DNA of 64,000 nt from Candidatus Omnitrophota bacterium (lineage in GTDB: Bacteria > Omnitrophota > Gorgyraeia > Gygaellales > Profunditerraquicolaceae). The stretch is taken from positions 106,048-170,047 of the forward strand of contig QZKH01000003.1 of NCBI GenBank assembly GCA_003598025.1. The letters are read 5' to 3'. A program made the position numbers and the translations under genes. Below are positions 10,336 through 58,204 of this stretch, piece by piece. The stretch's first letter is position 1, and each line of letters opens with the position of its first letter. The notes beneath the pieces are model-generated. The model did no database searches and was not told where the DNA came from. It worked only from the letters and a program-made list of their open reading frames with translations.

Positions 10336-10342
10336 TACAAGA

Positions 10343-14753: not shown

Positions 14754-14798
14754 ACGCTAAATTAAAGTTGCTTATATTTATTACTTTACCTCTACTTT

Positions 14799-15698: not shown

Positions 15699-15706
15699 CG
15701 AATTCT

Positions 15707-16894
15707 ATGAATATATGTTTAGTTTCACGAGAATATCCTCCAGAGCAGGGTGGTGGTATATCTACATACATATATAATCTTGCGCATGGATTACAAGCTT
15801 TAGGTTACAAGGTATTTGTAGTATCCTCAACAGAAAATGAGAGTATTTCTTTTGAAGATAGGGGCGTTATTATATATAGAATTAAAAGGCCATATTTAAA
15901 ATTCCTAAGTTTCCTTGAAGATATTTTCCCTTTAAGAGCCTTTCTTTATAGCATTGATGTTGCGAAGAAAATAAGATATCTTGAGTTATCAGAGAATATT
16001 GACTTGATTGAATTTCAGAATTGGTATGCCGAAGGTTTTTGGTATTTGTTATTTAAACATACTCGCCCTGTTGTTATCCGATTGCATACACCATATTTTG
16101 AAATTTTACGAATAAAGAACCTTATTCCTAGGATAAAGGACAGGCTTATATGTTGGTTAGAAAAAACAGCTGTTAAAAAAAGTGATTTTATTACAACTTC
16201 TACTGTTTTCCATAAAACATTTATGTCTAATGAATATAATATAGAACCTGATAAGATAAAGGTGATACCTCTAGGTGTAGATGTTGAATCAAACGATGAA
16301 TCAAACGATGAATCAAACGATACGTATTTTAATCCTGGAGATGATAAATTTAATGTGTTATTTTTAGGAAGGCTTGAAAAGAGGAAAGGTATAGATGTGT
16401 TGTTAGAGGCGATACCTTATGTTATTGGGCAGAAGCAAGAGATTAATTTTTACCTTGTAGGTATAGATAAGAATGAATATTTTGAGAAAGAATTTAAGAA
16501 GAGATATTCTAATCGATATGAAAATAGTGTGCATTTTATTGGATATGTAGGTAAACCTCAAAAAGAAAACTTTCTTAGAAAGTGCGATTTATTCGTTGCT
16601 CCTTCTTTGTACGAATCGTTTGGTTTTGTTTATATCGAGGCAATGAGATATGGCAGACCTGTTATTGGTTGTAACGGTATTTCGGCCCAAGAGATTATCG
16701 AGCATAACAAGAGCGGTTTTTTGATTCCCCCTAACAATGTGGAAGCTCTTGCTAAAATAATACTTGAGTTATTCGATGATAAGGTTAAGAGGGAAAAGGT
16801 TGGAATGGAGGCACGTGCCAAAGTTAAGTTACAATATTCAAGAGAAAAAATGGCTGAAGCAACAGCCACTTTTTATACTTCTATATTCAAATGA
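15707..16894 (+). CDS. family 4 glycosyltransferase (GT4, Glycos_transf_1)
   Basis: C-terminal EX7E-type motif 'ESFGFVYIEAMRYGRPVIG'. It contains an (ESND)x3 tandem repeat. Confidence 0.8.
   Translation: MNICLVSREYPPEQGGGISTYIYNLAHGLQALGYKVFVVSSTENESISFEDRGVIIYRIKRPYLKFLSFLEDIFPLRAFLYSIDVAKKIRYLELSENIDLIEFQNWYAEGFWYLLFKHTRPVVIRLHTPYFEILRIKNLIPRIKDRLICWLEKTAVKKSDFITTSTVFHKTFMSNEYNIEPDKIKVIPLGVDVESNDESNDESNDTYFNPGDDKFNVLFLGRLEKRKGIDVLLEAIPYVIGQKQEINFYLVGIDKNEYFEKEFKKRYSNRYENSVHFIGYVGKPQKENFLRKCDLFVAPSLYESFGFVYIEAMRYGRPVIGCNGISAQEIIEHNKSGFLIPPNNVEALAKIILELFDDKVKREKVGMEARAKVKLQYSREKMAEATATFYTSIFK
16286..16321 (+). repeat. 12-nt tandem repeat x3 (gaatcaaacgat) encoding ESNDESNDESND inside the GT4 gene
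   Basis: perfect direct triplication visible in the sequence. Confidence 0.8.
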
Positions 16895-18987: not shown

Positions 18988-20435
18988 ATAGATATAATGA
19001 TTCTAATAGACTTGGATTTTCTTGGGGCGATTTAAGAATGTTTTTGGCTTTTGTTTCAGTTGTTATTTTCTTTGGGATTATTGTACAAGCAGATTTTGAA
19101 ATACCCAGGGCTATACTTTATCCATTTTTTATTTTAGCTTTCTTTCTATTGCTTTCTAAAGGATTTAAAAAGCCAGAGATATGTATTTATGCATTAGTAA
19201 CATATGTGCCTTTCAGCAAAATTCTTGTTGGTGATTTTGGTGGGATGATGACCGCGTTAAACTTTACGAATATTTTGACTATTATAATGATTGTAACTTG
19301 GATTTTTGGTAATGTGTCGCAGAATAAGAAAGTTTATACACGTACATCGTTGGATATTCCGCTTTTAATTTTTATATTTTTTGGATGTTTCTCTTTAATT
19401 AAAGGCACGTTTTATTTTGGCGCCGATTACGCATTTAGTTTTATAACTCCTTTAAAAAGATGGCTCACTCCACTGTTTTTCTTTTTTATTGTTTTTAATA
19501 TAGTAAAAGACAAAAAAACAATAAAAAATATTATTTTGTTAATGATGGTAGTGTTGACAGTGGTTGCATTGATGGCTATAAAAGATTATATCGATGTTGG
19601 GAGTACAGCTAGCTTAGAGAAGTCGAGAATCGGTAGTATAGCACAACAACCAAATATCCTAGCTGCTTTCTTTGTGTATTATATGTTTCTTTTTGCTGGT
19701 TTTATGCTAATTTACTGGAACAATGTTAAGTTTTGGTTGCTTAGTTTTCCTTTTTTGCTTTGTTTTAGAGGTATGCAGGTCACTTTTTCTAGAGGAGGTT
19801 ATCTTGCTTTTGCTGCCGCAGCTTTAACAATAACTTTTTTCAAAAATAAGATTTTGTTTTTTATTATTGCTTTTCTTTTGATATTAACTGTCTTAAATCC
19901 AGCCTTTTTGCCAAGCGGAATAAAGTACAGAATCTCATCAACTTTCACTAAAGACCAGATATATTCTCCAACTCTTGAAGAGACTATAGATAAAAGTTCA
20001 GCTACTAGGATTGCCATATGGAAAGGTGGACTAGAAATGATAAAGGAGCATAAATGGTCTGGAGTTGGGTATGGAGTATTTCCTCATTTAATACCTTATT
20101 ATGCCCCTGAAGTTGGTAAAGTGGATGCTCACAATACATACATTTTGATTGCAGCAGAAATGGGAATTTTTGCTCTTTTAGTGTTTTTATTTATATTGGG
20201 AATAATATTCAAGAATACTTATAAATTATATCGACTCACAAGGGATAAGTTTTTTAAGGCCATATCGTTAGGCTTTCTAGGAAGCTTGGGTGGTGTTTTG
20301 GTTGCGAATATTTTCGGTGGAAGGCTTGACTCACAAGAAGTTAGTAGTTACTTTTGGATTTTAGCTGCTTTAATTTTTAGAGCACTATACATAGAAAAAC
20401 ATGATTATAATTCAAAGTTAAATCATGCGAAATAA
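18984..20435 (+). CDS. O-antigen ligase / Wzy-like polymerase family membrane protein
   Basis: About 11 predicted TM helices with a periplasmic loop region (Wzy_C-like) in the C-terminal third. Confidence 0.6.
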   Translation: MNRYNDSNRLGFSWGDLRMFLAFVSVVIFFGIIVQADFEIPRAILYPFFILAFFLLLSKGFKKPEICIYALVTYVPFSKILVGDFGGMMTALNFTNILTIIMIVTWIFGNVSQNKKVYTRTSLDIPLLIFIFFGCFSLIKGTFYFGADYAFSFITPLKRWLTPLFFFFIVFNIVKDKKTIKNIILLMMVVLTVVALMAIKDYIDVGSTASLEKSRIGSIAQQPNILAAFFVYYMFLFAGFMLIYWNNVKFWLLSFPFLLCFRGMQVTFSRGGYLAFAAAALTITFFKNKILFFIIAFLLILTVLNPAFLPSGIKYRISSTFTKDQIYSPTLEETIDKSSATRIAIWKGGLEMIKEHKWSGVGYGVFPHLIPYYAPEVGKVDAHNTYILIAAEMGIFALLVFLFILGIIFKNTYKLYRLTRDKFFKAISLGFLGSLGGVLVANIFGGRLDSQEVSSYFWILAALIFRALYIEKHDYNSKLNHAK

Positions 20436-22848
20436 CATTTTGATTATAGTAGATAATCTCGCAGCTGGTGGAGCCCAAAGGCAGATTATCGAATATTTAA
20501 AACTTGCTGATAAAAACATTTTTTATTTTAAAGTGGTAAACTTGGATTCAGATGTAACGATTCTGGAAAACGATATAAAACAAATAGGCCTCGAAGTCAT
20601 TAATATCCGTCATAAGGGCTTTTTTAACCTCTCAACTTTATTTAAATTATATAAGATTATAAAGTATGAAAAACCGGCAATCGTGCACACCTTTTTATTT
20701 ACCTCTGACCTATATGGCCGTATTGCAGCTAAATTAGCAGGAATACCTGTAATAATAAGCTCGGTTCGTAACATTGATAAGTGGCAGAAATGGCACCATA
20801 GGCTTGCAGACCGGATTTTGGCGAATGTTACGGATAAAATAACTATTAATGCAGAGTGTATCAGGCCTTATCTTGTGAATACAAAGAAACTCCCTAAAGA
20901 AAAAATTGTTACTATTTATAATGGTATAGATTTGAACAGGTTTGATAATTTAAGAGAGCCTAAGAGCATAAAAGCAGAACTGTGTATTTCGGATAAAGCT
21001 TTAATGGTCGGTATGGTTTCGCGTTTCTCAGAACAAAAGGATTATGATACTCTTCTAAAGGTAGCTCAGGAGATATCAAAAGAGCGGGAAGATGTATATT
21101 TTGTGTGTGTTGGGGATGGTAAATTAAAGCCGATACTCGATTCTCGATTCTCGATACGACCAAAGGGAGTCCTGAGCGAAGCCGAAGGACGCGATACTCG
21201 AAATATAAAGTTCACCGGCCTACGTTCCGACATCCCAGATTTGATTAACGCTATGGATATATGCGTATTATCCAGCCATTATGAGGGTTGTCCTAATGTT
21301 ATTTTGGAATACATGGCTTGCTCAAAACCGGTAATTGCTTCAAATGTTGGCGGATGCGCAGAATTAGTAGCAAATGGTAAGTCCGGTTTTATTGTGCCCC
21401 CAGGAGACATAAATTCCTTAAAAGACAAAATTGTTCTTCTGCTTGATGATAAAGAATTAAGGCTCAGAATGGGCAAAGAAGGCAGGGGGTTAGTTGAGGC
21501 TAAATTCATTTCGCAGAGAATGGTAAAAGAAACAGAAGGCTTATACAAACAATTATTGAACCCTAAAATCGCCTACATCCTTTCCCAATTCCCCGAAACT
21601 CACGAAACTTTCATATTAAGGGAGATAAAGGCACTTAAAGAGAAGGGCGTTGATGTTAAGATTATATCGCTAAAGAAGTGTAGGGACAGAGTTATACATG
21701 ATGAAGCTAAGGAATTTATAAAAGATACGATATATGCTGATGTTAGCGTATTGCGTATTGCGTGTAGCGTATTGAGCAAACCATTAAGATCCTTGGGTGC
21801 GTTGGGGTATGTTTTGAGGAGCTATTTCGGCAAGCCGTGGGAATTTGTTAAAGCGATGTATGTTTTGGCTGAATGCTTGAGTATTGCCCCGATGCTAAAA
21901 AAGATGCGCATAAAGCATATGCATAGCCACTGGGCAACCATGCCGACTACTGCTGCAGTTATCCTCAATAAATTAACGGGCATACCTTTCAGTTTTACTG
22001 CTCATGCCTGGGACCTGTTTATTGATTGCGACGGCTTGGAAGAGAAAATCAATAAGGCAAGGTTTGCTGTTACTTGTACCGGGTATAACAAGAATTTCAT
22101 GGGGTATTTTTGTAATAATGGCCAGGCGGATAAGGTGTATCTTAATTATCATGGATTGGATCTTAGTAAATATGTGGGGGGTCAGGGATTCAAGGAATCG
22201 AGGAATCAAGAGAGTAAATATGTGCGGGATCCACAGTCCGCAATACGCGATACTCAATACGCAATACGCACGACGCAATACGATAAGATATCTATTCTGG
22301 CAATTGGTAGGCTTGTAGAAACTAAAGGATTTGAGTATCTAATTGAGGCGTGTGGGATGTTGAAAGAAAGAGGGATTGATTTTGAGTGCTTTATTGTTGG
22401 ACAAGGACCATTAGAGAAGCGTTTAGCGTATAGCGTAGAGCGTATAGAGTTAAAAGATAAGATTAAATTCTTGGGATTGCAGACGCAGGAGCAGATAAAG
22501 AAGTTGTTTAGCGATGCAAGCGTATTAGTCCAGCCTTCGGTTATGGCCGGTAACGGCGATAGGGATGGCATTCCTAATGTGATTATAGAAGCTATGGCTT
22601 TGGGTGTTCCGGTTATTTCAACTAATTTTTCAGGTATACCAGAAGTAGTCATTGATAAAAAGACAGGTATTTTAGTCCAGGAGAAAGATAGTAATGAACT
22701 TGCCAACGCCATTGAGAACCTGCATAAGGATTGCTATTTGACGGATAAGATAATCAAAAATGCCAGGGAACATGTTGAGAAGAAGTTTAATATAGATACT
22801 AATGTTAGGGAGTTGATAGAGATATTTAGAAGTAATGGAGTATTATGA
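20425..22848 (+). CDS. tandem double GT4 glycosyltransferase carrying four in-frame repeat-module insertions
   Basis: Two Glycos_transf_1-type units, with GT4 motifs at 'EGCPNVILEYMACSKPVIAS' and 'GIPNVIIEAMALGVPVIST'. The inserts are at 21131-21200, 21745-21776, 22231-22287 and 22419-22449. Confidence 0.75.
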   Translation: MRNNILIIVDNLAAGGAQRQIIEYLKLADKNIFYFKVVNLDSDVTILENDIKQIGLEVINIRHKGFFNLSTLFKLYKIIKYEKPAIVHTFLFTSDLYGRIAAKLAGIPVIISSVRNIDKWQKWHHRLADRILANVTDKITINAECIRPYLVNTKKLPKEKIVTIYNGIDLNRFDNLREPKSIKAELCISDKALMVGMVSRFSEQKDYDTLLKVAQEISKEREDVYFVCVGDGKLKPILDSRFSIRPKGVLSEAEGRDTRNIKFTGLRSDIPDLINAMDICVLSSHYEGCPNVILEYMACSKPVIASNVGGCAELVANGKSGFIVPPGDINSLKDKIVLLLDDKELRLRMGKEGRGLVEAKFISQRMVKETEGLYKQLLNPKIAYILSQFPETHETFILREIKALKEKGVDVKIISLKKCRDRVIHDEAKEFIKDTIYADVSVLRIACSVLSKPLRSLGALGYVLRSYFGKPWEFVKAMYVLAECLSIAPMLKKMRIKHMHSHWATMPTTAAVILNKLTGIPFSFTAHAWDLFIDCDGLEEKINKARFAVTCTGYNKNFMGYFCNNGQADKVYLNYHGLDLSKYVGGQGFKESRNQESKYVRDPQSAIRDTQYAIRTTQYDKISILAIGRLVETKGFEYLIEACGMLKERGIDFECFIVGQGPLEKRLAYSVERIELKDKIKFLGLQTQEQIKKLFSDASVLVQPSVMAGNGDRDGIPNVIIEAMALGVPVISTNFSGIPEVVIDKKTGILVQEKDSNELANAIENLHKDCYLTDKIIKNAREHVEKKFNIDTNVRELIEIFRSNGVL
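21131..21200 (+). repeat. in-CDS insertion of repeat module F (ctcgattctcgattctcgatac...)
   Basis: Encodes DSRFSIRPKGVLSEAEGRDTR, which interrupts the conserved GDGxL...FTGxRxD GT4 segment. Compare the uninterrupted paralog at 24100-24190. Confidence 0.7.
21745..21776 (+). repeat. in-CDS insertion of repeat module C (gcgtattgcgtattgcgtgtagcgtattg)
   Basis: encodes SVLRIACSVLS. Confidence 0.6.
22231..22287 (+). repeat. in-CDS insertion of repeat modules D+C (ccacagtcc gcaatacgcgatactcaatacgcaatacgcacgacgcaatacg)
   Basis: encodes PQSAIRDTQYAIRTTQYD. Confidence 0.7.
22419..22449 (+). repeat. in-CDS copy of repeat module C (reverse complement of ctatacgctaaacgctatacgc)
   Basis: gcgtttagcgtatagcgtagagcgtatagag, encoding RLAYSVERIE. 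Confidence 0.6.
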
Positions 22849-22935
22849 GCTTTCAGCTATCAGTCGTCAGCTATCAGCAATGGATGATAAATCTGAGCTG
22901 TCAGCTTTCAGTTGTCAGATTTCATCTAAAGGAAG
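22849..22935. repeat. mosaic repeat (module B: agctNtcag runs)
   Basis: gagctttcagctatcagtcgtcagctatcagc ... gagctgtcagctttcagttgtcag. Confidence 0.75.
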
Positions 22936-22939
22936 ATAA

Positions 22940-23311
22940 ATGAAAGAGCAGAAGTTTAGAAAATTAGACGTTTGGAATAGGGCTATGGATTTTATTGGAG
23001 AGATTTATAAAGTTACTTCCAATTTCCCTTCAACAGAGATTTATGGTCTAAGCGCACAATTAAGAAGAGCCGCGATATCAATTTCATTGAATATAGCTGA
23101 AGGTAGTGGTTCTGGCTCTGATCCCGAATTTAACAGATTTCTAAATATTTCGTTAAGGTCAGCATACGAAGTTATGTGTGGCATTGAGGTAGCTTGTAAG
23201 TTGGATTATTGTGATAAAACCATCGCTGAGAAGTTATTAAATGAATGCGATGAACTTTCGGCAATGATAACTGGACTGAAAAGAAAGTTAATCGGTTCTT
23301 CACACAGCTGA
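22940..23311 (+). CDS. four-helix-bundle protein (23S rRNA IVS protein family), second copy
   Basis: 'FRKLDVWNRAMDFIGEIY...GLSAQLRRAAISISLNIAEG'. Confidence 0.8.
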   Translation: MKEQKFRKLDVWNRAMDFIGEIYKVTSNFPSTEIYGLSAQLRRAAISISLNIAEGSGSGSDPEFNRFLNISLRSAYEVMCGIEVACKLDYCDKTIAEKLLNECDELSAMITGLKRKLIGSSHS

Positions 23312-23340
23312 AAGCTGAAGACTGATGACTGATAGCTAAT
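23312..23340. repeat. short module-B repeat remnant
   Basis: gaaagctgaagactgatgactgatagct. Confidence 0.5.
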
Positions 23341-23341
23341 A

Positions 23342-24526
23342 ATGAAACTAAATGTGCTATATATAATTTGGAGTTTAGGCCTTGGTGGCGCAGAGCGGGT
23401 GGTTATTAACCTGGCTAAAGGGCTTGATAGGGATAAATTTAAGTCGATAGTCTGCTGCCTTAATTCTAAGGGCAAATTTGCAGATGAGCTTGAGAAAGAA
23501 GGTATCAGGGTAATAGAATTAAAAAAGAGATGGAAATTTGACTTTAGTGTCATAAAAAAGCTCATTGAAATAATAAAAGAGAATAAAATAAATATTGTGC
23601 ACACACATCTATGGGGTGCGAATTTCTGGGGAAGATTAGCAGCACAAAAGGCAAGTGTGCCTGTGATAATATCCACAGAGCATAATTCTGATACCTGGAA
23701 GACCCCGCTGCATTTTGTCATAGACAGGTATTTAGCAGCTAAGACAGACAGGATAATCGCGGTATCAAAGAGTGTCAAAGAGTTTTATGTTAAGAATGTG
23801 GGGATCCCTTCTGGGAAAATAGAGGTGATTTATAATGGCATAAGTATATCAGAGCACAGATCACAGATCACAGAGCACAGTAAATCACATTCCGTCCACA
23901 GTCCACAGTCCACAGTCCACAGTCAGGATAACTATATTCGTAAACAATTGGCTATCAGTCCTGATGAGACAGTAATAGCTATGATTGGTAGATTGGTGCC
24001 GCAGAAGGGGCATAAGGATTTCTTGTTAGCCTTAAAGGTCCTTACCGGATGCGGATTTAAGGTCAAAGGTTTAATTGTCGGCAGCGGCCCTCAAGAAATG
24101 TATTTGAAACAGGTGTGTGATAACCTTGCCCTTAATGGAAATGTTATTTTTACCGGTGTAAGGAGCGATATCCCGGAACTGTTTAAGGCAATAGATATGA
24201 TTGCTCTTCCTTCAACAAGGGAAGGTTTTCCTATGATTATATTAGAGGCTATGTCTGCAGGAGTACCTGTGGTTGCTTCAAGCGTTGGAGGGGTCCCTGA
24301 AGTTATAACTAACGGTTTTAACGGGCTTTTAGTTGAGCCTGAGAACCATACTGAGTTAAAAGCTGCTTTCGCTAAGTTAATCCATGATGAGCGGTTATCT
24401 AATAGCCTAATAGATAACGCTCGCGCTACAGTAGCAAAAGAATTTAATTTGAGGAATATGATCGATAGCACACAGGGGCTATATGAAAAGATTTATGAAA
24501 GCAAATTGCCTAAGGCGGATAAATGA
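23342..24526 (+). CDS. family 4 glycosyltransferase with in-frame repeat insertion
   Basis: 'GGAERVVINLAKGL' GT4 N-terminus; 'EGFPMIILEAMSAGVPVVAS' EX7E motif. Confidence 0.8.
   Translation: MKLNVLYIIWSLGLGGAERVVINLAKGLDRDKFKSIVCCLNSKGKFADELEKEGIRVIELKKRWKFDFSVIKKLIEIIKENKINIVHTHLWGANFWGRLAAQKASVPVIISTEHNSDTWKTPLHFVIDRYLAAKTDRIIAVSKSVKEFYVKNVGIPSGKIEVIYNGISISEHRSQITEHSKSHSVHSPQSTVHSQDNYIRKQLAISPDETVIAMIGRLVPQKGHKDFLLALKVLTGCGFKVKGLIVGSGPQEMYLKQVCDNLALNGNVIFTGVRSDIPELFKAIDMIALPSTREGFPMIILEAMSAGVPVVASSVGGVPEVITNGFNGLLVEPENHTELKAAFAKLIHDERLSNSLIDNARATVAKEFNLRNMIDSTQGLYEKIYESKLPKADK
23860..23927 (+). repeat. in-CDS insertion: cacagatcacagatcacagagcacagtaaat...gtccacagtccacagtccacagtccacagtc
   Basis: Encodes SEHRSQITEHSKSHSVHSPQSTVHSQ. 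The unit gtccaca is repeated 4x, and the same composite recurs at 27771-27894. Confidence 0.8.
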
Positions 24527-27654: not shown

Positions 27655-28459
27655 GAAAAAGTCTATACTAATGTACCACTCTGTGGGTTTTCCTGTTTTG
27701 GGGGATCCGGGTAACGGACTGTATTGTGTAAGTAAGGAGAATTTCAGGGAACAGATGCAATACATTACACAGGTCACAAAGACACAAAGTCACAAGGTCA
27801 CAGAACACAGTAAATTTGATGAAGTCCACAGTCCACAGTCTACAGTCCACGGTAAATTGGATGCTGTGGTCCGTCGACCGTCGACCGTCGACTGCTTAAT
27901 AACCTTTGACGACGGGGATGTGACGAATTTTACACAGGCTTATCCGGTATTAAAAGAACTGGGATTAACTGCGTATTTCTTTATATTAGCCGGCAAGATC
28001 GGCTCATCGGGCTATATGAGCTGGGGACAGATAAAAGAAATGCATGATAATGGCATGATTATCGGTTCGCATGGCATGACACATAGGATAATGCCCGCAC
28101 TATCCGATAAAGACATCAGGTATGAAATAAACACTTCAAAGGAATTCATTGAAGGCAAGCTTAAAACAAAGATTTATTATTTTTCGATACCGCGCGGATT
28201 CTATAATAAGAAAATATTGGGGATGCTGAAAAAAGCAGGATATAAAGGGGTTTTTACATCAGACTCCGGCAGGATAAATGATTATGAATTCGGCAGGATA
28301 GCGATCAGGAGCAATTGGGGGATAGGCCAGTTTAAAAAAGTATTGGAACGCGGGCCAAGCGTAAAAGATAAGCTTGAAGGAAGGCTTCGTAAGTCAGCGA
28401 TCAATTTGATAGGCATAAACAATTACGATAAATTAAGGATGGGATTGCTAAAGAAATGA
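27635..28459 (+). CDS. polysaccharide deacetylase (NodB homology domain) with N-terminal in-frame repeat insertion
   Basis: 'ITFDDGDVTNFTQAYPVLKELGLTAYFF...GSHGMTH' NodB motifs. ATG at 27635 after RBS gaggga; alternative TTG at 27611. Confidence 0.8.
   Translation: MKKPENKKKSILMYHSVGFPVLGDPGNGLYCVSKENFREQMQYITQVTKTQSHKVTEHSKFDEVHSPQSTVHGKLDAVVRRPSTVDCLITFDDGDVTNFTQAYPVLKELGLTAYFFILAGKIGSSGYMSWGQIKEMHDNGMIIGSHGMTHRIMPALSDKDIRYEINTSKEFIEGKLKTKIYYFSIPRGFYNKKILGMLKKAGYKGVFTSDSGRINDYEFGRIAIRSNWGIGQFKKVLERGPSVKDKLEGRLRKSAINLIGINNYDKLRMGLLKK
27771..27894 (+). repeat. in-CDS composite repeat insertion (modules H-D-G)
   Basis: gtcacaaagacacaaagtcacaagg, cacagtaaat, gtccacagtccacagtc, gtggtccgtcgaccgtcgaccgtcgac. 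Encodes QVTKTQSHKVTEHSKFDEVHSPQSTVHGKLDAVVRRPSTVD. Confidence 0.8.
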
Positions 28460-29229
28460 AGATATTATTCTGGGTTTCACTGTTGGTAATAATTTATGTT
28501 TATCTCGGGTATCCGTTATTGGCGTACCTGTTTTCGCTGCTTTATAAAAAACCATTAGCCGCAAAATATGTTTATCCGACGGTATCTATCTTGATTTCGG
28601 TCCATAATGAGGAGATAAATATCCGGAATAAGATTAATTCTTTGATGGAACTTGATTATCCGCAGGATAGATTAGAGATTATTTTCGGGTCGGATGGGAG
28701 TACGGATGGCACCGAAGAAATAATAAAACGAGATATTGAGGCCACAAGGCCACAAGGTCACAAGGTCACATTAGTAAGGCAGGAGAAGAGGCTGGGGAAG
28801 CCGAGCATGCTGAATAAGCTGGTAAAAGAAGCCAAAGGAGAAATCCTTGTCTTTACCGATGCCAGGCAGAGGTTGGACAATAATGCCTTAAAAGAGCTGG
28901 TCAAGCATTTTGCCGACGGAAAAGTTGGCTCGGTCAGTTCAGAGTTGATTTATGAGGATGAATCGCCGGAAAATAAGTCTTCAGGCGGAATTAACCTTTA
29001 TTGGGAATATGAAAAGTTTATCCGTAAAAGTGAATCACGCATGGGCTCTATGCTTGGGGCGACAGGCGCTCTCTATGCGATAAGAAGCAAGCTCTTCCCG
29101 GGGCTGCCTGAGGATATGATATTGGATGATGTTTATATCCCCATGAAAATTGTTGAAAAGGGCTATCGTGCGGTATTTGACTCTAAGGCCAAGATTTATG
29201 ATAAGGTATTCAGCGCGACCCGAAGATAG
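28456..29229 (+). CDS. family 2 glycosyltransferase, catalytic portion (apparently truncated by a frameshift near 29200-29245)
   Basis: 'YPTVSILISVHNEEINIRNKINSL' GT2 N-terminus, 'DAR' region, then a stop after ...FSATRR. Confidence 0.6.
   Translation: MKILFWVSLLVIIYVYLGYPLLAYLFSLLYKKPLAAKYVYPTVSILISVHNEEINIRNKINSLMELDYPQDRLEIIFGSDGSTDGTEEIIKRDIEATRPQGHKVTLVRQEKRLGKPSMLNKLVKEAKGEILVFTDARQRLDNNALKELVKHFADGKVGSVSSELIYEDESPENKSSGGINLYWEYEKFIRKSESRMGSMLGATGALYAIRSKLFPGLPEDMILDDVYIPMKIVEKGYRAVFDSKAKIYDKVFSATRR
28741..28770 (+). repeat. in-CDS insertion of module E (gccacaaggccacaaggtcacaaggtcaca)
   Basis: encodes ATRPQGHKVT. Confidence 0.7.
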
Positions 29230-40705: not shown

Positions 40706-40815
40706 TTCACAGTTCATAGAGATAGATAAAGTATCTAGAATCGAGCATCTAGAATCTAGGATCGAGTCAACGCTGACGGCTGACAGCTGATGACTGAAAG
40801 CTTAATCGTAGAATG
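40706..40815. repeat. mosaic repeat element, reverse orientation (modules A-I-F-B)
   Basis: agttcacagttcatag; gagatagataaagtatctaga; atcgagcatctagaatctaggatcgag; gctgacggctgacagctgatgactgaaagct. Confidence 0.8.
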
Positions 40816-40828
40816 ATAGGGAAGGGGG

Positions 40829-42973: not shown

Positions 42974-44122
42974 TTAGGCCATTTTCCTTGTCTTTATTAC
43001 TATTGCCGGGTATATTGAACCTTCGCCATAGCGGTTGTTTATATTATCTAATGTCTCTAAGAGGTCTCCCCTCTTTTTCTGCTCAATAAGTAAAGGGGGG
43101 TATAATTTAATTTTTAGGTTGCTGCAGCTTACCCCAATAGCCCTTATTTTTGGCCTTTTTAGGCCTGTTTTAGCCAGTATTTTCAGGGTATTTGAGTAGA
43201 TCTCGTAACCATCATCAGTCTCCTGGGTAATGGTATTTTGGGCGCAAAAATTGCCCATTTGCGGGCCGTTAAGCCAAAGCTTTATGGTGTTAGAAACCAA
43301 GTTTTGGCTCCTTAGCCTTTCTGATACCATCTCTGAAAGCAGCCTTAACCAGGCCTTGATAAACCCCATGGTTTCTGATGTCCTGGGAAATGTGTAAGAA
43401 TGGCTTATTGATTTGGGTTTTTCTTCTTCGTTTGTTGACTCAAGGTGTTCGGTTGCATGTAAAGATGCATATAAATTCAGGCCGTATTTACCCAGCGTTT
43501 CTTTAAGGAATCTGGCTGTTTTTTGGTGCAGGTCAAGGCATGTCTTTATGCCCAAGGTTGTAAAAAGAAGCTCTGTTTTTGGGCCTACTCCTGCGATTTT
43601 AGCAACCGGAGTCTTACCTAATACTTCTCTTAAGTTTGTTTCTGTAAGCAGGCATATTCCGTTTGGTTTGTTTATTTTAGAAGCTAGTTTTGCTAGTAAG
43701 GAATTCTTCGCTATGCCTATTGAAGCGGTTATGTTAAAGTTTGCATATATTCTTGCCTGAATATCTTTTGCCAGTTCAAGGGGCGCATTTTCCTGGCCTA
43801 TATCTAAACGGAATTCATCAATTGAAGCGTAAGCAGCCTCAAGGCTGTAGTCTTTAAGCATCCCGTAGATCTGTTGCGAGGTCCAGATATATTTACCCTG
43901 ATCAGCTGCCACAAATTCTGCTTTTGGGCATATCTGAAATGCATCTTTGGTAGGCATTCCGGAGTGTATGCCAAGGGCTTTGGCTTCATAGCTTGCAGCG
44001 CAGACTACGGTATATAATTTATTGCCTCTTGAGCCTACTATTAGCGGTTTGCCTTTTAGCCTTGGGTTGATTGCTTGCTCAATAGATGCAAAAAACGCAT
44101 CCATATCGATGTGGAGAATCAT
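42974..44122 (-). CDS. dinB: DNA polymerase IV (Y-family)
   Basis: 'MILHIDMDAFFASIEQ...KPLIVGS' canonical DinB N-terminus; 'SIDEFRLD' catalytic region. Confidence 0.9.
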   Translation of the reverse strand: MILHIDMDAFFASIEQAINPRLKGKPLIVGSRGNKLYTVVCAASYEAKALGIHSGMPTKDAFQICPKAEFVAADQGKYIWTSQQIYGMLKDYSLEAAYASIDEFRLDIGQENAPLELAKDIQARIYANFNITASIGIAKNSLLAKLASKINKPNGICLLTETNLREVLGKTPVAKIAGVGPKTELLFTTLGIKTCLDLHQKTARFLKETLGKYGLNLYASLHATEHLESTNEEEKPKSISHSYTFPRTSETMGFIKAWLRLLSEMVSERLRSQNLVSNTIKLWLNGPQMGNFCAQNTITQETDDGYEIYSNTLKILAKTGLKRPKIRAIGVSCSNLKIKLYPPLLIEQKKRGDLLETLDNINNRYGEGSIYPAIVIKTRKMA

Positions 44123-44215
44123 GGATTAGTTCATTGTTGATAGTTCATTGTTCATAGTGCATTGTTAATGGGTATGGAGTTTTCTATGAACCAAGAACCA
44201 TGAACTATGAACAGG
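44123..44215. repeat. module-A imperfect palindrome (gttcat... / ...atgaac arms)
   Basis: tagttcattgttgatagttcattgttcatag ... ctatgaaccaagaaccatgaactatgaac. Confidence 0.7.
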
Positions 44216-44219
44216 CCTA

Positions 44220-44540
44220 TTATTCTATTACTTTTTCTAACCTCCATCCCAACGTTGTATTATTGAAAGAGATTTGATATAGGTTAGCTTGTGTGCTTAT
44301 GGAGAATTTTATTATTATCTCTTTGCCTTGGCGTTCCTGCCAGTTATAGGTTATTTTCTTAATTTTATAACTTTTATTTTTCCAAATAAAAATCCGTGGT
44401 ATCAGCTTTGCGCCTTTAAACCAGGCAAGGACCTGTATTTTTTCGTTTAGAATATCCGGTTCTTCCTGGTGTTCTGCTGATGTTTCGGGAATATGCCTGT
44501 CCCACCGGGCTTTTGGATTAAAGCTTTGTTGTAGAGCCAT
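44220..44540 (-). CDS. hypothetical protein between lexA and dinB
   Basis: 106-aa ORF co-oriented with and tightly spaced between the SOS genes. No family recognised. Confidence 0.45.
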   Translation of the reverse strand: MALQQSFNPKARWDRHIPETSAEHQEEPDILNEKIQVLAWFKGAKLIPRIFIWKNKSYKIKKITYNWQERQGKEIIIKFSISTQANLYQISFNNTTLGWRLEKVIE

Positions 44541-44555
44541 ATTAGTATTGTGTAT

Positions 44556-44700
44556 CTAGTATATATTAGTTCATGGTTCATAGTTCATGGAGATAGATAA
44601 AGTATCTAGCCACAAGGTCACAAGGTCACAAATATTGCGTTATGCGTATTGCGTACGGCGTATCGAGAATCTAGTATTAAGAATCTAGGATCAAGGATTG
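44556..44700. repeat. mosaic repeat element, reverse orientation (modules A-I-E-C-F)
   Basis: ttagttcatggttcatagttcatgg; agatagataaagtatctag; ccacaaggtcacaaggtcacaa; attgcgttatgcgtattgcgtacggcgta; tcgagaatctagtattaagaatctagg. Confidence 0.85.
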
Positions 44701-44711
44701 AATATCTTTGT

Positions 44712-45323
44712 TCACCGATATTTCCTTAGTAAGCTGATTAGCTTGCCAATTACGCTGAAATTCTTGCGGATTGGCTGATAGTTTACATTAGCCGGCTCAA
44801 GATAAATATGGCTGCCTGTATTCTTGAATATCTTTAGTGTTACCTCATTATTATCAAGTAATGCTGCGATTATATCATTGTTATGCGCAAGCGGTTGTTT
44901 TTTGATGATAGCAATGTCATCTTCAAGTATGCCGGCATCAACCATGCTGTCGCCTTTGACTTTTAAGGCAAACACATCATTATAACTAAGCCTTCCTAAG
45001 TATAAGTCATAAGGGTCAACGTATCCCTGGATATCTTCATAAGCTAAGCTGGGGCTTCCTGCGGCAATCGTGCCTATAATCGGTATCTTATTAATGTTGC
45101 TTTTTGCCAGGTCTATATGGCGGGATTTGTAACTGGCGCGTTTTAAATAGCCTTTATTTTGCAATGCGTTCAAATAGTCACGTACTGTACCGGTTGAGCT
45201 AAACCCGAATTCAGCCGCGATCTCCCTTATTGTCGGAGGAATATTTTGTTCCTCTATCCTGTTTTTTATAAACTCCAGCACTTTCTGTTGTTTTGTAGTT
45301 AAGTCATTCGTTAGCATTGTCAA
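44712..45323 (-). CDS. lexA: LexA repressor (S24 peptidase)
   Basis: N-terminal winged HTH 'LTTKQQKVLEFI...PTIREIAAEFGFSSTGTV', cleavage-site-like AG, Ser/Lys dyad region 'VKGDSMVDAGI...K'. Confidence 0.9.
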   Translation of the reverse strand: MTMLTNDLTTKQQKVLEFIKNRIEEQNIPPTIREIAAEFGFSSTGTVRDYLNALQNKGYLKRASYKSRHIDLAKSNINKIPIIGTIAAGSPSLAYEDIQGYVDPYDLYLGRLSYNDVFALKVKGDSMVDAGILEDDIAIIKKQPLAHNNDIIAALLDNNEVTLKIFKNTGSHIYLEPANVNYQPIRKNFSVIGKLISLLRKYR

Positions 45324-45329
45324 CCTCCT

Positions 45330-45420
45330 TAATCAGCTATTAGCTTTCAGTCGTCAGCTGTCAGCTATGATCTATCAACCCTGTCTACCGGCAGGCAGCC
45401 ATGAACTACAAACCAATCTA
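45330..45420. repeat. mosaic repeat (modules B, J, A)
   Basis: cagctattagctttcagtcgtcagctgtcagct; ctgtctaccggcaggcag; ccatgaactacaaacc. Confidence 0.7.
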
Positions 45421-45445
45421 TACCACACATTTGTGTGGATGTCAA
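45417..45445 (-). promoter_or_regulatory. lexA promoter (TTGACA-17-TATAGA, read on the minus strand) with a 16-bp palindromic candidate LexA operator in the spacer
   Basis: The minus strand reads TTGACA tccacacaaatgtgtgg TATAGA. The palindrome CCACACAtt/aaTGTGTGG lies at 45423-45438, about 95 nt upstream of the lexA ATG. Confidence 0.5.
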
Positions 45446-45454
45446 GCCTTTTAG

Positions 45455-45527
45455 GTCCGTTTCTCCCGCTGACCATAGAGTTGCCCCCGCTGGGGGCACT
45501 TCTGTGATGAGTGGGAGAAACGGACCT
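45455..45527. other. 73-nt structured element: 14-bp outer inverted repeat enclosing a GC hairpin
   Basis: ggtccgtttctccc ... gcccccgctgggggc ... gggagaaacggacc. Lies between the methyltransferase stop and the lexA promoter. Confidence 0.35.
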
Positions 45528-45537
45528 CCCCTGCTGA

Positions 45538-46218
45538 TTAATAACAGTGGGTGCAGATGAAGATAAATTGAAAGGCGGTTAGCTTGGTTAGGATATTTAG
45601 CCTGTGGCCAAGGCCTGTGGGGATAATTTTAATTATTTTACATCCGGATTGCTCTATCATCCGTATTGCGGTTTTCATGGTAAAGAACCTAAGGTGCTGG
45701 CTGTGCATTATACCATTATCGTAGTCAAAATTTCCGAATAAATGCCTTAATCTGTATTCTATTCTGGCTATGTTCGGTATAGAAATTATTATTTTGCCTT
45801 TATTTTTAAGGTTCTCTTTGATAAATTTATTCAGCACCCTGGAGGGCTCGGGTAAGTGCTCTAGTATATCCACAAATAGTATCTGATCGTATTTGAAGCC
45901 AGGTAATGAAAAAGTATTGCTCGATAGGTCTATTCTATAGGTATTTCTGTAGCCGTTCTCTTTAGCTTTGCTAAGCAGACATTCTTCTATATCTATTCCG
46001 TCTACGACACAGTTTTTGTTTTTGATAAGCCATTTACCTATATAACCGGAATTACACCCTACATCAAGTACGGCTGTATCTGTGGGCATAAGCCCAAGAA
46101 TGATGCTATGCGGGCTGTGAGGATCGGTGTTAAAAGTATGAGTCTCAATGTTTTTTATCAAAATATCCTTATTGTAAGCCCATGAACCATGAACCATGAA
46201 CCATGAACCATGAACCAT
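45538..46218 (-). CDS. class I SAM-dependent methyltransferase; N-terminus encoded by module-A repeats
   Basis: 'VLDVGCNSGYIGKWL' motif I and 'ILFVDILEH' motif II-like. The N-terminus 'MVHGSWFMVHGSW' is translated from (catgaacc)n. The true start is uncertain. Confidence 0.7.
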   Translation of the reverse strand: MVHGSWFMVHGSWAYNKDILIKNIETHTFNTDPHSPHSIILGLMPTDTAVLDVGCNSGYIGKWLIKNKNCVVDGIDIEECLLSKAKENGYRNTYRIDLSSNTFSLPGFKYDQILFVDILEHLPEPSRVLNKFIKENLKNKGKIIISIPNIARIEYRLRHLFGNFDYDNGIMHSQHLRFFTMKTAIRMIEQSGCKIIKIIPTGLGHRLNILTKLTAFQFIFICTHCY

Positions 46219-46225
46219 GAACCAT
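46176..46225. repeat. tandem octamer repeat (catgaacc)x6
   Basis: ccatgaaccatgaaccatgaaccatgaaccatgaaccatgaac. Confidence 0.9.
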
Positions 46226-46243
46226 GAACAAACCTACTCTTAC

Positions 46244-46486
46244 TTACTTTTTGTATATATACCCTTTATTATTCTCTTCTATCTTCTTTTGGATTTGTTC
46301 TTTTGTGTATTTTGCTTTATTAGGGTTCTTGATGACTTTGGCTTTCGGGCAAGTCACTTCAATCCTGGCTCCTTTGCATTTCTTTGAAGACTTTTGTTTG
46401 TTTTTTGCCAATACGATATCGTTTGTATTTAGGATGAATAGAAAAGAAAAAAACATAATCAAAACAAAATTAATTTTCCGCATCAA
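46244..46486 (-). CDS. small secreted lysine-rich protein (hypothetical)
   Basis: Signal peptide 'KINFVLIMFFSFLFILNTNDIVLA', co-oriented with neighbouring genes. The overlapping + strand ORF 46224-46499 is the less likely alternative. Confidence 0.35.
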   Translation of the reverse strand: MMRKINFVLIMFFSFLFILNTNDIVLAKNKQKSSKKCKGARIEVTCPKAKVIKNPNKAKYTKEQIQKKIEENNKGYIYKK

Positions 46487-47288
46487 TTCTCCTTTTTAAT
46501 TTATTATTCATTATTTGGCTAACAGTCAGGTTATTCTTGCCCTGAGGGTCATTTTCACTGATAAATTTAAACCATTCTTCAATAACCCCGGGATTCTCAT
46601 CAAAATTAAAAACATGAGTTACTACTCCAAAGACTTGATCACCTTTAAAGGCGTTATAGATCTTTTTTAATTTTACCAGGTTAATTTTGCCTCCTAAGAA
46701 TCCGTATCCTAAGGTATAGACCGTTGTTCCCTTTATAATGCTTTTTACTGGCGCGCTTACCGCATTATTTGCTACAAAGCCTTCTGTCCTATAAGGCACC
46801 CCCTGTACCCAGTCATTAATATCCGGGTTACCAAGCGTATTGATTTTTAAAGGGTAAGCAAGCCGGTTTAATATATCAGCATAATCTTGCATGGTGCCTT
46901 TGAATCTTGGATCGTTAAATTTGTTTTTATCATCACTATAGCCATCCCAAGTATACTTATGCGTTGCCGGATGGTGGTGTCCTGCAATTTCGTGGCCATT
47001 GTTTTGCCAGGAACGCAAACGTGATAATTTTTGTTTATCTGATAATATCATGTTTGCCCATTGAGGAGTAAATTCAATGGTTAATTTTATCTTATAAGTA
47101 TCAGCAAGTTGTACAAACGAACACAAAGTCTCAAACATCCTGTTAAATGCTGTTGTCGGCTCGCAGTGCACTGCGAAGAAATGCAAGGGGATACTTTTGG
47201 TTTCTTTTGCCGCAAGGACTTTAACAGGGTAAATTAAGATTAACGCAAATACCAGTGTGTAAATAATTGGTTTAAGGTATGTTTTCAT
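46470..47288 (-). CDS. secreted protein, possible carbohydrate esterase/deacetylase-like fold
   Basis: Signal peptide; His-rich 'HFFAVHCEP...GHEIAGHHHP' putative metal-binding residues. Confidence 0.45.
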   Translation of the reverse strand: MKTYLKPIIYTLVFALILIYPVKVLAAKETKSIPLHFFAVHCEPTTAFNRMFETLCSFVQLADTYKIKLTIEFTPQWANMILSDKQKLSRLRSWQNNGHEIAGHHHPATHKYTWDGYSDDKNKFNDPRFKGTMQDYADILNRLAYPLKINTLGNPDINDWVQGVPYRTEGFVANNAVSAPVKSIIKGTTVYTLGYGFLGGKINLVKLKKIYNAFKGDQVFGVVTHVFNFDENPGVIEEWFKFISENDPQGKNNLTVSQIMNNKLKRRIDAEN

Positions 47289-47499
47289 TATTATCAGCTT
47301 TCAGTCATCAGCGTTCAGCAAGCTGTGGTCTGTGGACCGTGGTCTGTAAACTAATAGATGCTCGATTCTAGATACTAGATTCTCGATACGCCGTACGCAA
47401 TACGCATAACGCAATATTTGTGTCTTTGTGACTTTGTGTCTTTGTGACCAGATACTTTATCTATTTCTATGAACTATGAACCATCAGCTATGAACTAAC
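47289..47499. repeat. most complete mosaic repeat element (module order B-G-F-C-H-I-A)
   Basis: cagctttcagtcatcagcgttcagc | gtggtctgtggaccgtggtctgt | gctcgattctagatactagattctcgatac | gccgtacgcaatacgcataacgcaata | ttgtgtctttgtgactttgtgtctttgtgac | cagatactttatctatttc | tatgaactatgaaccatcagctatgaac. Confidence 0.9.
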
Positions 47500-47916
47500 C
47501 TACTCCCCTATTATCTTTATTAATACCCTTTTCTTTCTTTTTCCGTCAAACTCCCCATAAAATGCCTGTTCCCAGGGGCCAAAATCGAGTTTCCCTTTGG
47601 TTACCGCAATGACTATCTCTCTACCCATAATTGTTCTTTTTAAATGGGCATCGGCATTATCTTCACCTGTCAGGTTATGATTATATCTGGATGGATCATG
47701 AGGAGCAAGCTTCTCAAGCCATGAGGAAAAATCTTTGTGCAGGCCCTCTTCATCGTCATTAATAAATACGCTTGAAGTGATATGCATTGCGTTGACAAGG
47801 CAAAAGCCTTCCTGAATTTTACTTTTTTTAAGGGCAGATTCTATTTGGGGAGTGATATTTATGAATGCGATGCGTTCAGGAGTATTAAACAAAAGATGCT
47901 CACTGTAGCTTTTCAT
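47500..47916 (-). CDS. YjbQ/UPF0047 family protein (secondary thiamine-phosphate synthase-like)
   Basis: '[15 protein letters not shown]...[15 protein letters not shown]...[19 protein letters not shown]' matches the YjbQ family. Confidence 0.8.
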
Positions 47917-53006: not shown

Positions 53007-53144
53007 ATAAGTGATGGTATGTCAATAGTTTAGTTCATTGTTCATGGTTCAGAGTTCATAGACATACAGCTGTGCTATGAACCTTGAACTATCAACCTTG
53101 AACTAAACCTGATTTACTTTTTTTTAATTTCTGCTATAATTACA
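53007..53144. repeat. module-A imperfect palindrome
   Basis: tagttcattgttcatggttcagagttcatag ... ctatgaaccttgaactatcaaccttgaact. Confidence 0.75.
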
Positions 53145-58000: not shown

Positions 58001-58004
58001 TAAA

Positions 58005-58204
58005 GAATATTAATAAAGACTAAAATTAATTCATAGTTCAGGGTTCATTGTTCATGGGTTTTGCATACCTATCAACCACGAACCATGAAACTAGTTTTTT
58101 TGTGATTTTGCCTGCCTACCGGTAGGCAGGTGTCGTGTGTCTTTGTGACTAGATACTTTATCTATCTCTATGAACCATTAACTATGAACCATGAACTAAT
58201 ATTA
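58005..58204. repeat. mosaic repeat element (A-palindrome, J, H, I, A)
   Basis: ttcatagttcagggttcattgttcatgg...cgaaccatgaaac; cctgcctaccggtaggcagg (perfect 20-bp palindrome); gtgtctttgtgac; tagatactttatctatctc; tatgaaccattaactatgaaccatgaac. Confidence 0.85.

Follow-up and report, generated by a model that had tools for sequence, protein, structure and literature searches.

The short repeats that populate the spacers of a Candidatus Omnitrophota chromosome are tandem heptamers, and some of them form the complementary arms of cassettes that encode a four-helix-bundle protein. We analyzed a 64-kb stretch of this chromosome (the window), with about 70 open reading frames (ORFs); the tract at 47289–47499 is the focal one. 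The tracts are arrays of tandem 7-nt, sometimes 8-nt, units of the kind known from cyanobacteria as short tandemly repeated repetitive (STRR) sequences. Two genes of the PF05635/TIGR02436 family, here called IVP1 and IVP2, are enclosed in the window by arrays that are reverse complements of each other. The argument is carried by the periodicity of the tracts, their paralogy, their unit-sized indels, an association between arms and the ORF in three phyla, the co-variation of arm type with protein clade, and the predicted pairing of the arms. On this evidence we see about an even chance that the arrays are the arms of selfish cassettes resembling 23S rRNA intervening sequences (IVSs), together with ORF-less and single-arm derivatives of these cassettes.

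Tandem heptamers fill intergenic regions

Arrays were detected with Tandem Repeats Finder (TRF), a strict periodicity detector, a seven-column printout, and a module parse. Counts were compared with Markov-resampled shuffles that approximately keep dinucleotide content and with 768 kb of unrelated loci. The units fall into families A (TGAACYA), B (TCAGCNN), C (ACGCNNT), and H (TTGTGAC), along with G and F; a lower-case letter (a, b, c, h, g) denotes the reverse complement of the upper-case unit. The strict detector found 20 period-7 arrays (756 nt) and four period-8 arrays in the window but no array of periods 3–6 or 9–11 there, and no array at all in shuffled sequence. The 768 kb of unrelated loci gave 12 strict arrays, which makes the window about 20-fold denser. 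Arrays cover 12.9% of intergenic bases versus 0.98% of coding bases, a strong intergenic preference, and 13 of the 30 intergenic regions contain one by the same detector. That detector overlooked the region 22849–22939, where arrays were found by TRF and the module parse. About 25 array tracts are present in all, ten intergenic ones listed in the original prediction and about fifteen further.

The original prediction described the ten regions as mosaics of low-complexity modules in a conserved order, distinct from simple-sequence repeats (SSRs). The repeated family is real: on the ORF map all ten regions are intergenic, and all contain period-7 and some period-8 tandem repeats. The modules are tandem heptamers or octamers rather than low-complexity sequence, and the supposed contrast falls away, since the tracts are themselves simple-sequence heptamer arrays (STRRs or long SSRs). 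Every listed copy stands, and the list lacks 383–510, 8653–8706, 23304–23341, 44123–44219, 46177–46233, and the arrays that lie in frame within genes.

The focal tract and its copies

The focal tract and its inverted copy consist of the following parts.

47289–47499, plus strand: focal mosaic tract of 211 nt, the entire spacer between 46470–47288 (minus) and 47500–47916 (minus)
47294–47320, plus strand: four B units (TCAGCNN), 7-base register
47321–47347, plus strand: three to four G units (CTGTGGT-like), 7-base register
47355–47389, plus strand: five F units (TCTAGAT/TCTCGAT), 7-base register
47386–47416, plus strand: four C units (ACGCNNT), 7-base register
47417–47448, plus strand: four H octamers (TTTGTGWC), period 8
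47450–47467, plus strand: core I, a non-repetitive 18-mer (18–21 nt), read from the sequence
47467–47497, plus strand: four A units (TGAACYA), 7-base register
44541–44711 (aligned 44573–44692), minus strand: inverted paralogous copy of F-C-H-I-A, from the alignment

The fraction of matching bases in the focal tract is 0.51 at a lag of 7, versus 0.21–0.25 at lags 5, 6, and 8–10. The reverse-complement copy that had been noted at 44556–44700 is a true homolog: 44573–44692 and 47357–47484 are reverse complements over 128 nt at 86% identity, and the single 8-nt gap equals one H unit. About 50 nt are identical in a row and cover the same ordered variant C units. The two tracts lie 2.7 kb apart and bracket three minus-strand genes: lexA, a methyltransferase gene, and a DUF2334-like gene. 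The RNA duplex predicted between them has an energy of −176.8 kcal/mol versus −42 ± 4.5 kcal/mol for shuffles, and in this model they could pair as a duplex of about 120 bp around the three-gene segment.

Other portions of the focal tract have their own relatives. Positions 47435–47498 match 58136–58199 (87.5% identity over 64 nt), and the B-G block (47292–47347) matches 7706–7761 (82% over 56 nt). Away from the focal tract, 7784–7855 and 9091–9169 align over 79 nt at 89% identity with a single 7-nt gap, and both end in the ribosome-binding segment AAAACAAGGAGA. The homology between copies has ragged rather than fixed ends. Together with a 53-nt pair in coding sequence described below, the paralogous segments of 128, 79, and 64 nt (85–89% identity) indicate that composites are copied between sites and change by whole 7- or 8-nt units. 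The proposed order B<G<F<C<H<I<A is seen at 47294, at 44569 and 40705 (both as reverse complements), at 7708, and at 58111; it breaks at 10174, with A ahead of C. That the copies are paralogous segments, rather than any grammar of the modules, accounts for part of the common order.

Core I is the non-repetitive element of the mosaics. The 18-mer occurs four times in the window with at most one mismatch versus 0.17 expected, and with its flanking bases (CTAGATACTTTATCTATCTCTATGAAC) it stands between H or F units and A units in four copies. Across 185,579 species representatives it gave 103 single matches in unrelated AT-rich taxa, about the chance level and none of them cyanobacterial or in the source genome, and a 24-mer of core plus A had no match in the JGI metagenomes. 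The 20-nt palindrome J of the original prediction occurs once exactly (58111–58130) and once with three mismatches (45380–45399). This G+C-rich palindrome, CCTGCC-N-GGCAGG(TGT), recurs at about 3020–3045 of L104, a relative with 56% RpoN identity, and at 5657–5676 of L122, an unrelated contig with an A array; it is possibly a small element of this lineage in its own right, resembling repetitive extragenic palindromic (REP) sequences.

Terminal inverted repeats are absent from the focal tract, whose two ends share no exact inverted match longer than 5 nt. A search for element ends, which had been suggested for the family, gave only ragged homology ends here and no flanking target-site duplication of 3–10 nt. 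The tract contains no PF05635 ORF or ORF remnant. As RNA it has no excess structure over shuffles (z −1.05).

PF05635 genes are enclosed by complementary arms

Two cassettes were recognized in the window. Folds were computed on transcripts of roughly 500 nt for each, and pairing of the upstream arms refers to both the minimum free energy (MFE) and the centroid structure.

8707–9066, plus strand: IVP1, PF05635/TIGR02436 four-helix-bundle gene (Pfam E 1e-41; NCBIfam TIGR02436; PDB 2gsc E 1.5e-22)
8653–8706, plus strand: IVP1 upstream arm of reverse-C units (GCGTATA/GGGTATA), predicted to pair with 9100–9137 (MFE and centroid)
9067–9176, plus strand: IVP1 downstream arm of 12 C units ending in ...AACGCAATACGAAAACAAGGAGA, followed by the next start codon (TRF, fold)
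22940–23311, plus strand: IVP2, second PF05635 four-helix-bundle gene (Pfam E 4e-36), 39% identical to IVP1
22849–22939, plus strand: IVP2 upstream arm of two blocks of B units (TCAGCNN), predicted to pair with 23304–23341 (MFE and centroid)
23304–23341, plus strand: IVP2 downstream arm of reverse-B units (GCTGANN), ending at the next ATG (module parse, fold)

IVP1 lies between the BY-kinase ATPase and epimerase genes of a polysaccharide operon, and IVP2 lies between two family 4 glycosyltransferase (GT4) genes. The IVP1 cassette folds with z −3.3 and its flanks form a duplex with z −5.5; the corresponding values for IVP2 are −3.1 and −3.7. Both proteins belong to the "23S rRNA intervening-sequence protein" (S23p) family and are weakly Avd-like, with 2gsc as the closest solved structure. 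Both cassettes thus share with an IVS the PF05635 ORF and, in the predicted folds, complementary termini that enclose it. They do not share its location within 23S rRNA: they lie between protein-coding genes, and Rfam finds no rRNA in the window.

Arms accompany PF05635 genes in other genomes

The first clue came from metagenome loci selected only for (ATGAACY)4, some of which contain IVP homologs. The gene lies between reverse-A and forward-A arrays in L136, L167, and L218, and between B and reverse-B arrays in L199, a layout like that of IVP2. Among 120 A-array loci there were three with the order a-IVP-A and 20 ORF-less a-A hairpins with a gap of at most 150 nt. The 768 kb of background contained no IVP gene.

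IVP homologs selected by protein identity alone provided an unbiased sample. Each of the seven IVP genes in L228, L230, and L234, all Omnitrophota loci, has reverse-complementary arms of 3–5 tandem heptamers or octamers; the C and H families of the window are among them. The arm pairs are TGCGNAA/ACGCATT, GTCACAAA/TTGTGACC, GTAACNA/GTTACNA, AGTAGCN/NGCTACT, GAGTATT/CAATACN, and CGCGTAT/CGCGATA, and for 10 of the 15 arrays there an IVP gene is at most 40 nt away. When 72,556 plasmids were searched by tblastn, the gene turned up chiefly in Nostoc, Calothrix, Anabaena, and their relatives, and in Riemerella, taxa known for heptamer repeats. Fourteen plasmid loci were inspected, Nostoc, Anabaena, Geminocystis, Picosynechococcus, Leptolyngbya, and Riemerella among them, and most of their IVP genes are flanked on both sides by heptamer arrays, usually inverted (GGGAGTA/TCCCTAC in N. 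edaphicum, GGGAACA/TGTTCCC in Nostoc C052, GGTTCAA/TTGAACC in Riemerella). Plasmid cassettes sit between cas6 and cas4, between cas10 and cmr3, and between the genes for two ribonucleotide reductase (RNR) subunits. Such armed genes within CRISPR-cas operons or between RNR subunits were seen in Anabaena sp. 90 (L240), Pseudanabaena (L247), Picosynechococcus (L248), and Nostoc edaphicum (L243).

Complementarity was quantified as the duplex z score of the two 110-nt flanks of a gene. The median was −3.28 for 23 IVP genes versus −0.22 for 40 neighboring genes (Mann-Whitney p 9e-6), and z was −3 or lower for 13/23 IVP genes versus 4/40 neighbors. Arm type goes with protein clade. The five IVPs whose arms are of the ACGC type share 63–72% identity with one another versus 30–48% with the others, and they occupy five different slots in four genomes; the arms travel with the ORF to different slots. 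Within one and the same operon, the IVP gene is found between GNVR and AAA_22 in L230, between AAA_22 and AAA_31 in L234, and between AAA_31 and the epimerase gene in the window. The AAA_22/AAA_31 slot holds a complete IVP cassette in L234 and a solitary B-G-C mosaic (7698–7863) in the window. IVP proteins are more conserved (61–77%) than RpoN (56%), but this was not used as a sign of horizontal transfer because other window proteins reach 70% to the same relatives.

Proposed origin of the arrays

These observations are consistent with the following scheme. A cassette would consist of an arm, an optional Shine-Dalgarno sequence, a PF05635/TIGR02436 ORF of about 120 aa, and a second arm that is the reverse complement of the first, inserted in an intercistronic spacer of an operon. 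Once transcribed, the arms would pair into a stem of 25–45 bp that encloses the ORF. By analogy with the 23S IVSs that carry the same ORF, RNase III may cut this stem, in which case the insertion would do little harm to the flanking genes. Arms would gain and lose whole units by replication slippage while point mutation makes the units drift. Arms and composites would be copied to other spacers, and in frame to tolerant protein linkers, by cassette movement or by homology-driven recombination. The solitary mosaics would then derive from cassette arms by recombination and slippage, and the focal tract would be an ORF-less recombined composite of a B-G block and an F-C-H-I-A block.

Several results weigh against this scheme. 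Only 4 of the approximately 25 window tracts flank an IVP gene, and tblastn with 120 IVP homologs found no ORF remnant at any solitary array, so the proposed origin of the focal mosaic draws on shared unit families and architecture alone. Direct mosaics, the focal tract included, have no more RNA structure than shuffles (z −1.05 to +1.35) and cannot by themselves act as stems. The arrays around some plasmid IVP genes are direct (Pseudanabaena, Oscillatoria) or non-complementary (PCC 7120, Stanieria), and the gene of Calothrix 7716 has none. The number of plasmid loci is small, some control genes in the flank comparison share arms with neighboring cassettes, and the source genome was surveyed over 64 kb. 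No cassette-mobilizing enzyme was identified.

The main rival is that the arrays are plain long heptamer SSRs born by slippage in situ, drifting neutrally and homogenized by ectopic recombination, and that PF05635 genes lie nearby incidentally as both accumulate in dispensable spacers. Copies do differ by unit-sized indels, the arrays are imperfect and run either with or against transcription, and most window arrays have no nearby IVP gene or remnant. (ATGAACY)n arrays occur in contigs with G+C contents from 0.29 to 0.65. Heptamers, the unit favored in many bacteria, are also the commonest class of long SSR according to the work of Mrazek et al. 2007 as it is summarized in PMC4679880. Independent slippage, however, gives no reason to expect two loci to share an ordered series of variant units, identical over about 50 nt, or two unrelated genes to contain the same 53-nt composite. 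Neither complementary arms around one gene family (p 9e-6) nor an arm type that tracks the ORF clade is expected of it. We therefore regard plain SSRs as unlikely for the family as a whole, although they are a possible origin of the focal tract. On the (ATGAACY)n contigs themselves, two metagenome contigs with A arrays (L166 and L200) carry AAACCCT (TTTAGGG-type telomere) repeats and are probably eukaryotic, so that not all matches to this unit are bacterial.

Solitary arrays and inverted pairs

The remaining intergenic tracts of the window comprise mosaics, inverted A pairs, and one perfect array.

7698–7863, plus strand: solitary mosaic B-G-C with a Shine-Dalgarno sequence, in the AAA_22/AAA_31 slot
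10167–10342, plus strand: solitary mosaic B-G-(B)-A-C, which breaks the proposed order (module parse)
40706–40828, minus strand: B-F-I-A mosaic in minus-strand orientation, separating the convergent genes PocR/GAF and rpoN
45324–45420, plus strand: B units, a degenerate palindrome J (45380–45399), and one A unit, upstream of lexA
58001–58204, plus strand: reverse A (58027–58057), spacer, J (58111–58130), H-like units, core I (58151–58168), and forward A (58168–58198), the outer A arms being inverted
53007–53144, no strand assigned: ORF-less hairpin of reverse A (53028–53061), a 13-nt loop, and forward A (53075–53108), from the RNA fold
383–510, no strand assigned: ORF-less a/A hairpin (382–416 with 428–462), fold z −5.1
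44123–44219, no strand assigned: ORF-less a/A hairpin between dinB and a 106-aa gene, fold z −3.65
46177–46233 (46180–46229), plus strand: perfect (CCATGAA)x7 array (TRF, 100% matches) overlapping the annotated 5' end of the methyltransferase ORF

The inverted A-array pairs at 382–462, 44135–44213, and 53028–53108 fold strongly (z −3.7 to −7.8), and the outer arms of 58030–58188 are also an inverted pair. The hairpin at 53007–53144 has −38 kcal/mol and z −7.5 to −7.8 on either strand. Because each CCATGAA unit of the perfect array has an ATG on both strands, every copy number leaves a start codon in frame.

Several observations concern the neighborhood of lexA. Between lexA and dinB lies the 106-aa gene (44220–44540), which has a weak DUF6504 match. 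Inverted A arrays stand on both sides of it (flank duplex z −4.8), which suggests that the four-helix-bundle gene is not the only cargo that arms can enclose. About 100 nt upstream of the lexA start, in the row of lexA, imuA-like, and dinB genes, positions 45423–45438 form a perfect palindrome of 16 nt, CCACACATTTGTGTGG. It is a candidate LexA operator, and its half-site resembles the H unit TTTGTGWC. Just 3' of the methyltransferase stop codon, 45453–45527 forms a long, imperfect hairpin with arms of 36 nt that are 83% complementary and a loop of 3 nt; it is not heptameric and has no Rfam match even at E ≤ 1.

The positions of the solitary arrays bear on a regulatory role, in which they would be protein-binding sites or unstructured leaders that tune downstream transcription or translation. 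Such a role was proposed before for the TAACTGA repeats of Beggiatoaceae and for Nostoc heptamers upstream of recF and recO (PMC4679880; bioRxiv 10.1101/2022.06.06.494920). In the window, arrays abut start codons, two C arrays end in the identical segment AAAACAAGGAGA, and RNA of the mosaic arrays is unstructured (z −1 to +1.35). The same composite nevertheless occurs in both orientations relative to same-strand genes (44541–44711 versus 47289–47499), and arrays are also found after stop codons, between convergent genes, and within coding sequence. There are many unrelated unit sequences, and no candidate binding protein was identified. Regulation as the reason for the arrays is improbable on balance. 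Promoter and terminator scans of the window gave counts equal to those of shuffles.

The original prediction suggested for the family a mobile or recombinogenic class like REPs, bacterial interspersed mosaic elements (BIMEs), or miniature inverted-repeat transposable elements (MITEs). Elements of this class would be moved in trans by a transposase encoded elsewhere in the genome. Mobile or recombinogenic is a fair description, since composites have been copied between loci and arm types move with the small gene in other genomes. The class itself does not hold, and we consider it very improbable. Dispersed mosaic copies, including hairpin-forming inverted A-array pairs, are what it predicts, and in a relative a Y1 (PF01797) gene with its own inverted repeats occupies the slot of array 40706–40828. 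Those inverted repeats, however, are not heptamer arrays; more fully, the slot holds either the Y1 transposase gene or a plain 82-nt spacer in relatives, and in L104, L105, and L106 (e.g. L104 11328–11999) the Y1 gene lies between rpoN and PocR/GAF with the inverted repeats AAGGGGACGTTTCTATTTT/AAAATAGAAACGTCCCCTT. The comparison with Rfam gave no family: a scan of the window at the gathering score returned tRNA-Gly only, and a scan of 44000–47600 at E ≤ 1 returned nothing. The focal tract has neither terminal inverted repeats nor a target-site duplication, its copies have ragged ends, and the approximately 70 window ORFs include no REP-associated tyrosine transposase (RAYT), other transposase, integrase, or reverse transcriptase.

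The arrays do resemble REPs, BIMEs, and the REP doublets called REPINs that accompany RAYTs (Bertels & Rainey 2011, PMC3116915) in being short intergenic mosaic repeats with hairpin-forming inverted pairs, and like them they may act as mRNA 3' stabilizers or terminators. They differ in having arms of tandem heptamers instead of one palindromic unit of about 35 nt, and in the absence of RAYT. The associated gene, unlike RAYT, encodes a four-helix-bundle protein without known catalytic activity.

Arrays in polysaccharide genes

Seven or eight short arrays lie in frame within four polysaccharide-synthesis genes, three glycosyltransferases and a deacetylase.

21128–21159, 21742–21772, 22182–22211, 22239–22278, and 22416–22450, plus strand: five short in-frame arrays (F, c, a further short array, C, c) in the 807-aa double GT4 ORF (20425–22848)
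23848–23928, plus strand: 81-nt in-frame array (27 codons) in the interdomain linker of the GT4 gene 23342–24526, homologous to the deacetylase array
27771–27896, plus strand: 126-nt array (42 codons) of h, g, and G units, in frame in the polysaccharide deacetylase gene and preceding its catalytic domain
28736–28773, plus strand: in-frame 8-mer array (AGGCCACA) in a GT2 gene

A 53-nt composite is common to the GT4 (array 23848–23928) and deacetylase (27798–27850) coding sequences at 85% identity. The 807-aa ORF is a fusion of two GT4 modules, and its arrays fall at linker or surface-helix positions of the GT4 folds. The coding arrays add 7–42 residues to real enzymes. Alignments to PDB structures are only suggestive that they are insertions: the GT4 alignment passes through the array region without a clean gap, and the deacetylase alignment begins after the array. 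Mechanical ORF calling passes straight through heptamer arrays. A perfect 12-nt repeat (TGAATCAAACGA x3.1) at 16285–16321 is also in frame, with four codons per unit, in the GT4 gene 15707–16894 and is unrelated to the heptamer families.

That the arrays are contingency loci, in which gain or loss of one unit switches surface-polysaccharide genes in the manner of the heptanucleotide repeats said to cause phase variation of Haemophilus hmw1A, would suit the in-frame arrays in the four polysaccharide genes and the perfect runs found by TRF (GTCCACA x4.4, CCGTCGA x3.1, CCATGAA x7.1), but identical-unit runs are short (3–4), which implies low slippage rates, and most arrays are intergenic and beside housekeeping genes, so there is little to recommend it.

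Genome setting

The window carries rpoN, a gene for a sigma-54 activator, and an exosortase/PEP-CTERM polysaccharide locus. Its RpoN is 100% identical to a protein from a Candidatus Omnitrophota metagenome-assembled genome, and the next best match is 56%. A cyanobacterial origin, which the heptamers might suggest, is ruled out by sigma-54 and its activator, the Omnitrophota-identical RpoN, and the absence of the HIP1 palindrome. Dense same-strand genes might also suggest a phage or prophage; megablast against 50,697 phage records gave no match, and the genes are those of housekeeping and polysaccharide synthesis. In relatives whose RpoN is 55–56% identical and whose synteny is conserved, the spacers are ordinary and contain no more than one heptamer hairpin per 21 kb; the heptamer expansion is therefore lineage-specific. 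The single heptamer feature in 21 kb of one such relative (L104 16540–16594) is the inverted pair CATGTCGCAGGTC ... GACCTGCGAC, an intergenic hairpin of H-like TGTGACC units. Within the polysaccharide cluster, 13000–21000 has a G+C content of 24–33% versus about 40%, and contains asparagine synthase-like, GT2, GT4, and Wzy genes; this stretch looks like a horizontally exchanged variable region.

Relation to known heptamer repeats and intervening sequences

Tandem heptamer arrays have been used to fingerprint cyanobacteria since 1990. Mazel and colleagues reportedly described the STRR heptamer arrays of heterocystous cyanobacteria in that year, and Elhai and colleagues are said to have described, in 2008, small dispersed repeats (SDR1-8 of Nostoc punctiforme) embedded in cyanobacterial heptamer arrays. 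The window arrays share with cyanobacterial STRRs the tandem heptamers, a unit that changes along the run, and the intergenic preference. Core I, 18–21 nt, is a short non-repetitive element embedded in heptamer runs as the SDRs, of 21–27 nt, are said to be. The arrays of cyanobacterial plasmids flank the same PF05635 gene family as those of Omnitrophota. The phylum differs, and the window contains no tandem STRR1 (CCCCAGT), STRR2 (TTGGTCA), STRR3 (CAACAGT), or TAACTGA and no HIP1. No published link between STRRs or heptamer arrays and PF05635 cassettes was found in the literature searched, which did not cover Elhai et al. 2008.

Intergenic TAACTGA and mixed heptamers have also been reported from Beggiatoaceae, Cyanobacteria, and Bacteroidetes, with a patchy phylogenetic distribution that suggests horizontal spread (MacGregor 2015, PMC4679880). 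As in that study, sets of direct heptamers fill spacers, abut start codons, and in some cases lie within ORFs, and near-identical heptamer assemblages occur at several loci (there in Elizabethkingia). The units are different, however, both orientations are common here, and inverted pairs are frequent here and rare there (one in BOGUAY). Translational control was proposed for those repeats, and four-helix-bundle genes were not considered (PMC4679880).

The closest model for the cassettes is the Coxiella burnetii 23S IVS, in which an S23p ORF is enclosed by inverted repeats that form a 28-bp stem and which RNase III excises in vitro; two to three tandem heptamers (GACAGAT) precede the ORF, their number depending on the strain (Warrier et al. 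2016, PMC4990558). A 23S IVS with an S23p ORF in Leptospira was compared as well, through the account of Ralph & McClelland 1993 given in PMC4990558. The window cassettes have the same ORF family as these IVSs and enclosing inverted repeats predicted here to fold to a long stem. Tandem heptamers in the arm upstream of the ORF, with variation in the number of units, recall Coxiella in particular. Their position is patchy between genomes, as it is for the 23S IVSs, which are regarded as selfish. The 23S IVSs lie in helix 25 or 45, whereas the cassettes lie between protein cistrons, in a polysaccharide operon here and in CRISPR-cas, RNR, and conjugation operons elsewhere. The cassettes also differ in having whole arms of 3–12 heptamers with a unit that varies by copy, and in having many ORF-less and single-arm derivatives.

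The kinds of element involved, STRR-like heptamer arrays and S23p intervening sequences, are already known. New here are heptamer arrays in Omnitrophota and the reading of such arrays as the arms of intercistronic four-helix-bundle cassettes. A much broader and quite doubtful proposal is that heptamer arrays generally (cyanobacterial STRRs, the mixed heptamers of Bacteroidota and Beggiatoaceae, and the Omnitrophota arrays) are the arms and debris of one IVS-like class of cassette that encodes Avd-like bundle proteins. Such cassettes would colonize spacers and rRNA because RNase III removes the stems, and the bundle protein would help to copy or move them, for instance in partnership with a reverse transcriptase, the role that Avd has in diversity-generating retroelements.

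The origin, spread, and function of the heptamer arrays of cyanobacteria, giant sulfur bacteria, and Bacteroidetes are so far unexplained. If the link between arrays and cassettes holds genome-wide, the arrays would gain a source, the arms of selfish cassettes diversified by slippage, and stems removed by RNase III would be what permits insertion inside operons. The link would also give a genomic context to a large orphan family that has tens of copies in many genomes and is related to the diversity-generating retroelement protein Avd. The general proposal, if true, would account for where heptamer repeats come from and why their distribution is patchy, a puzzle that is 35 years old.

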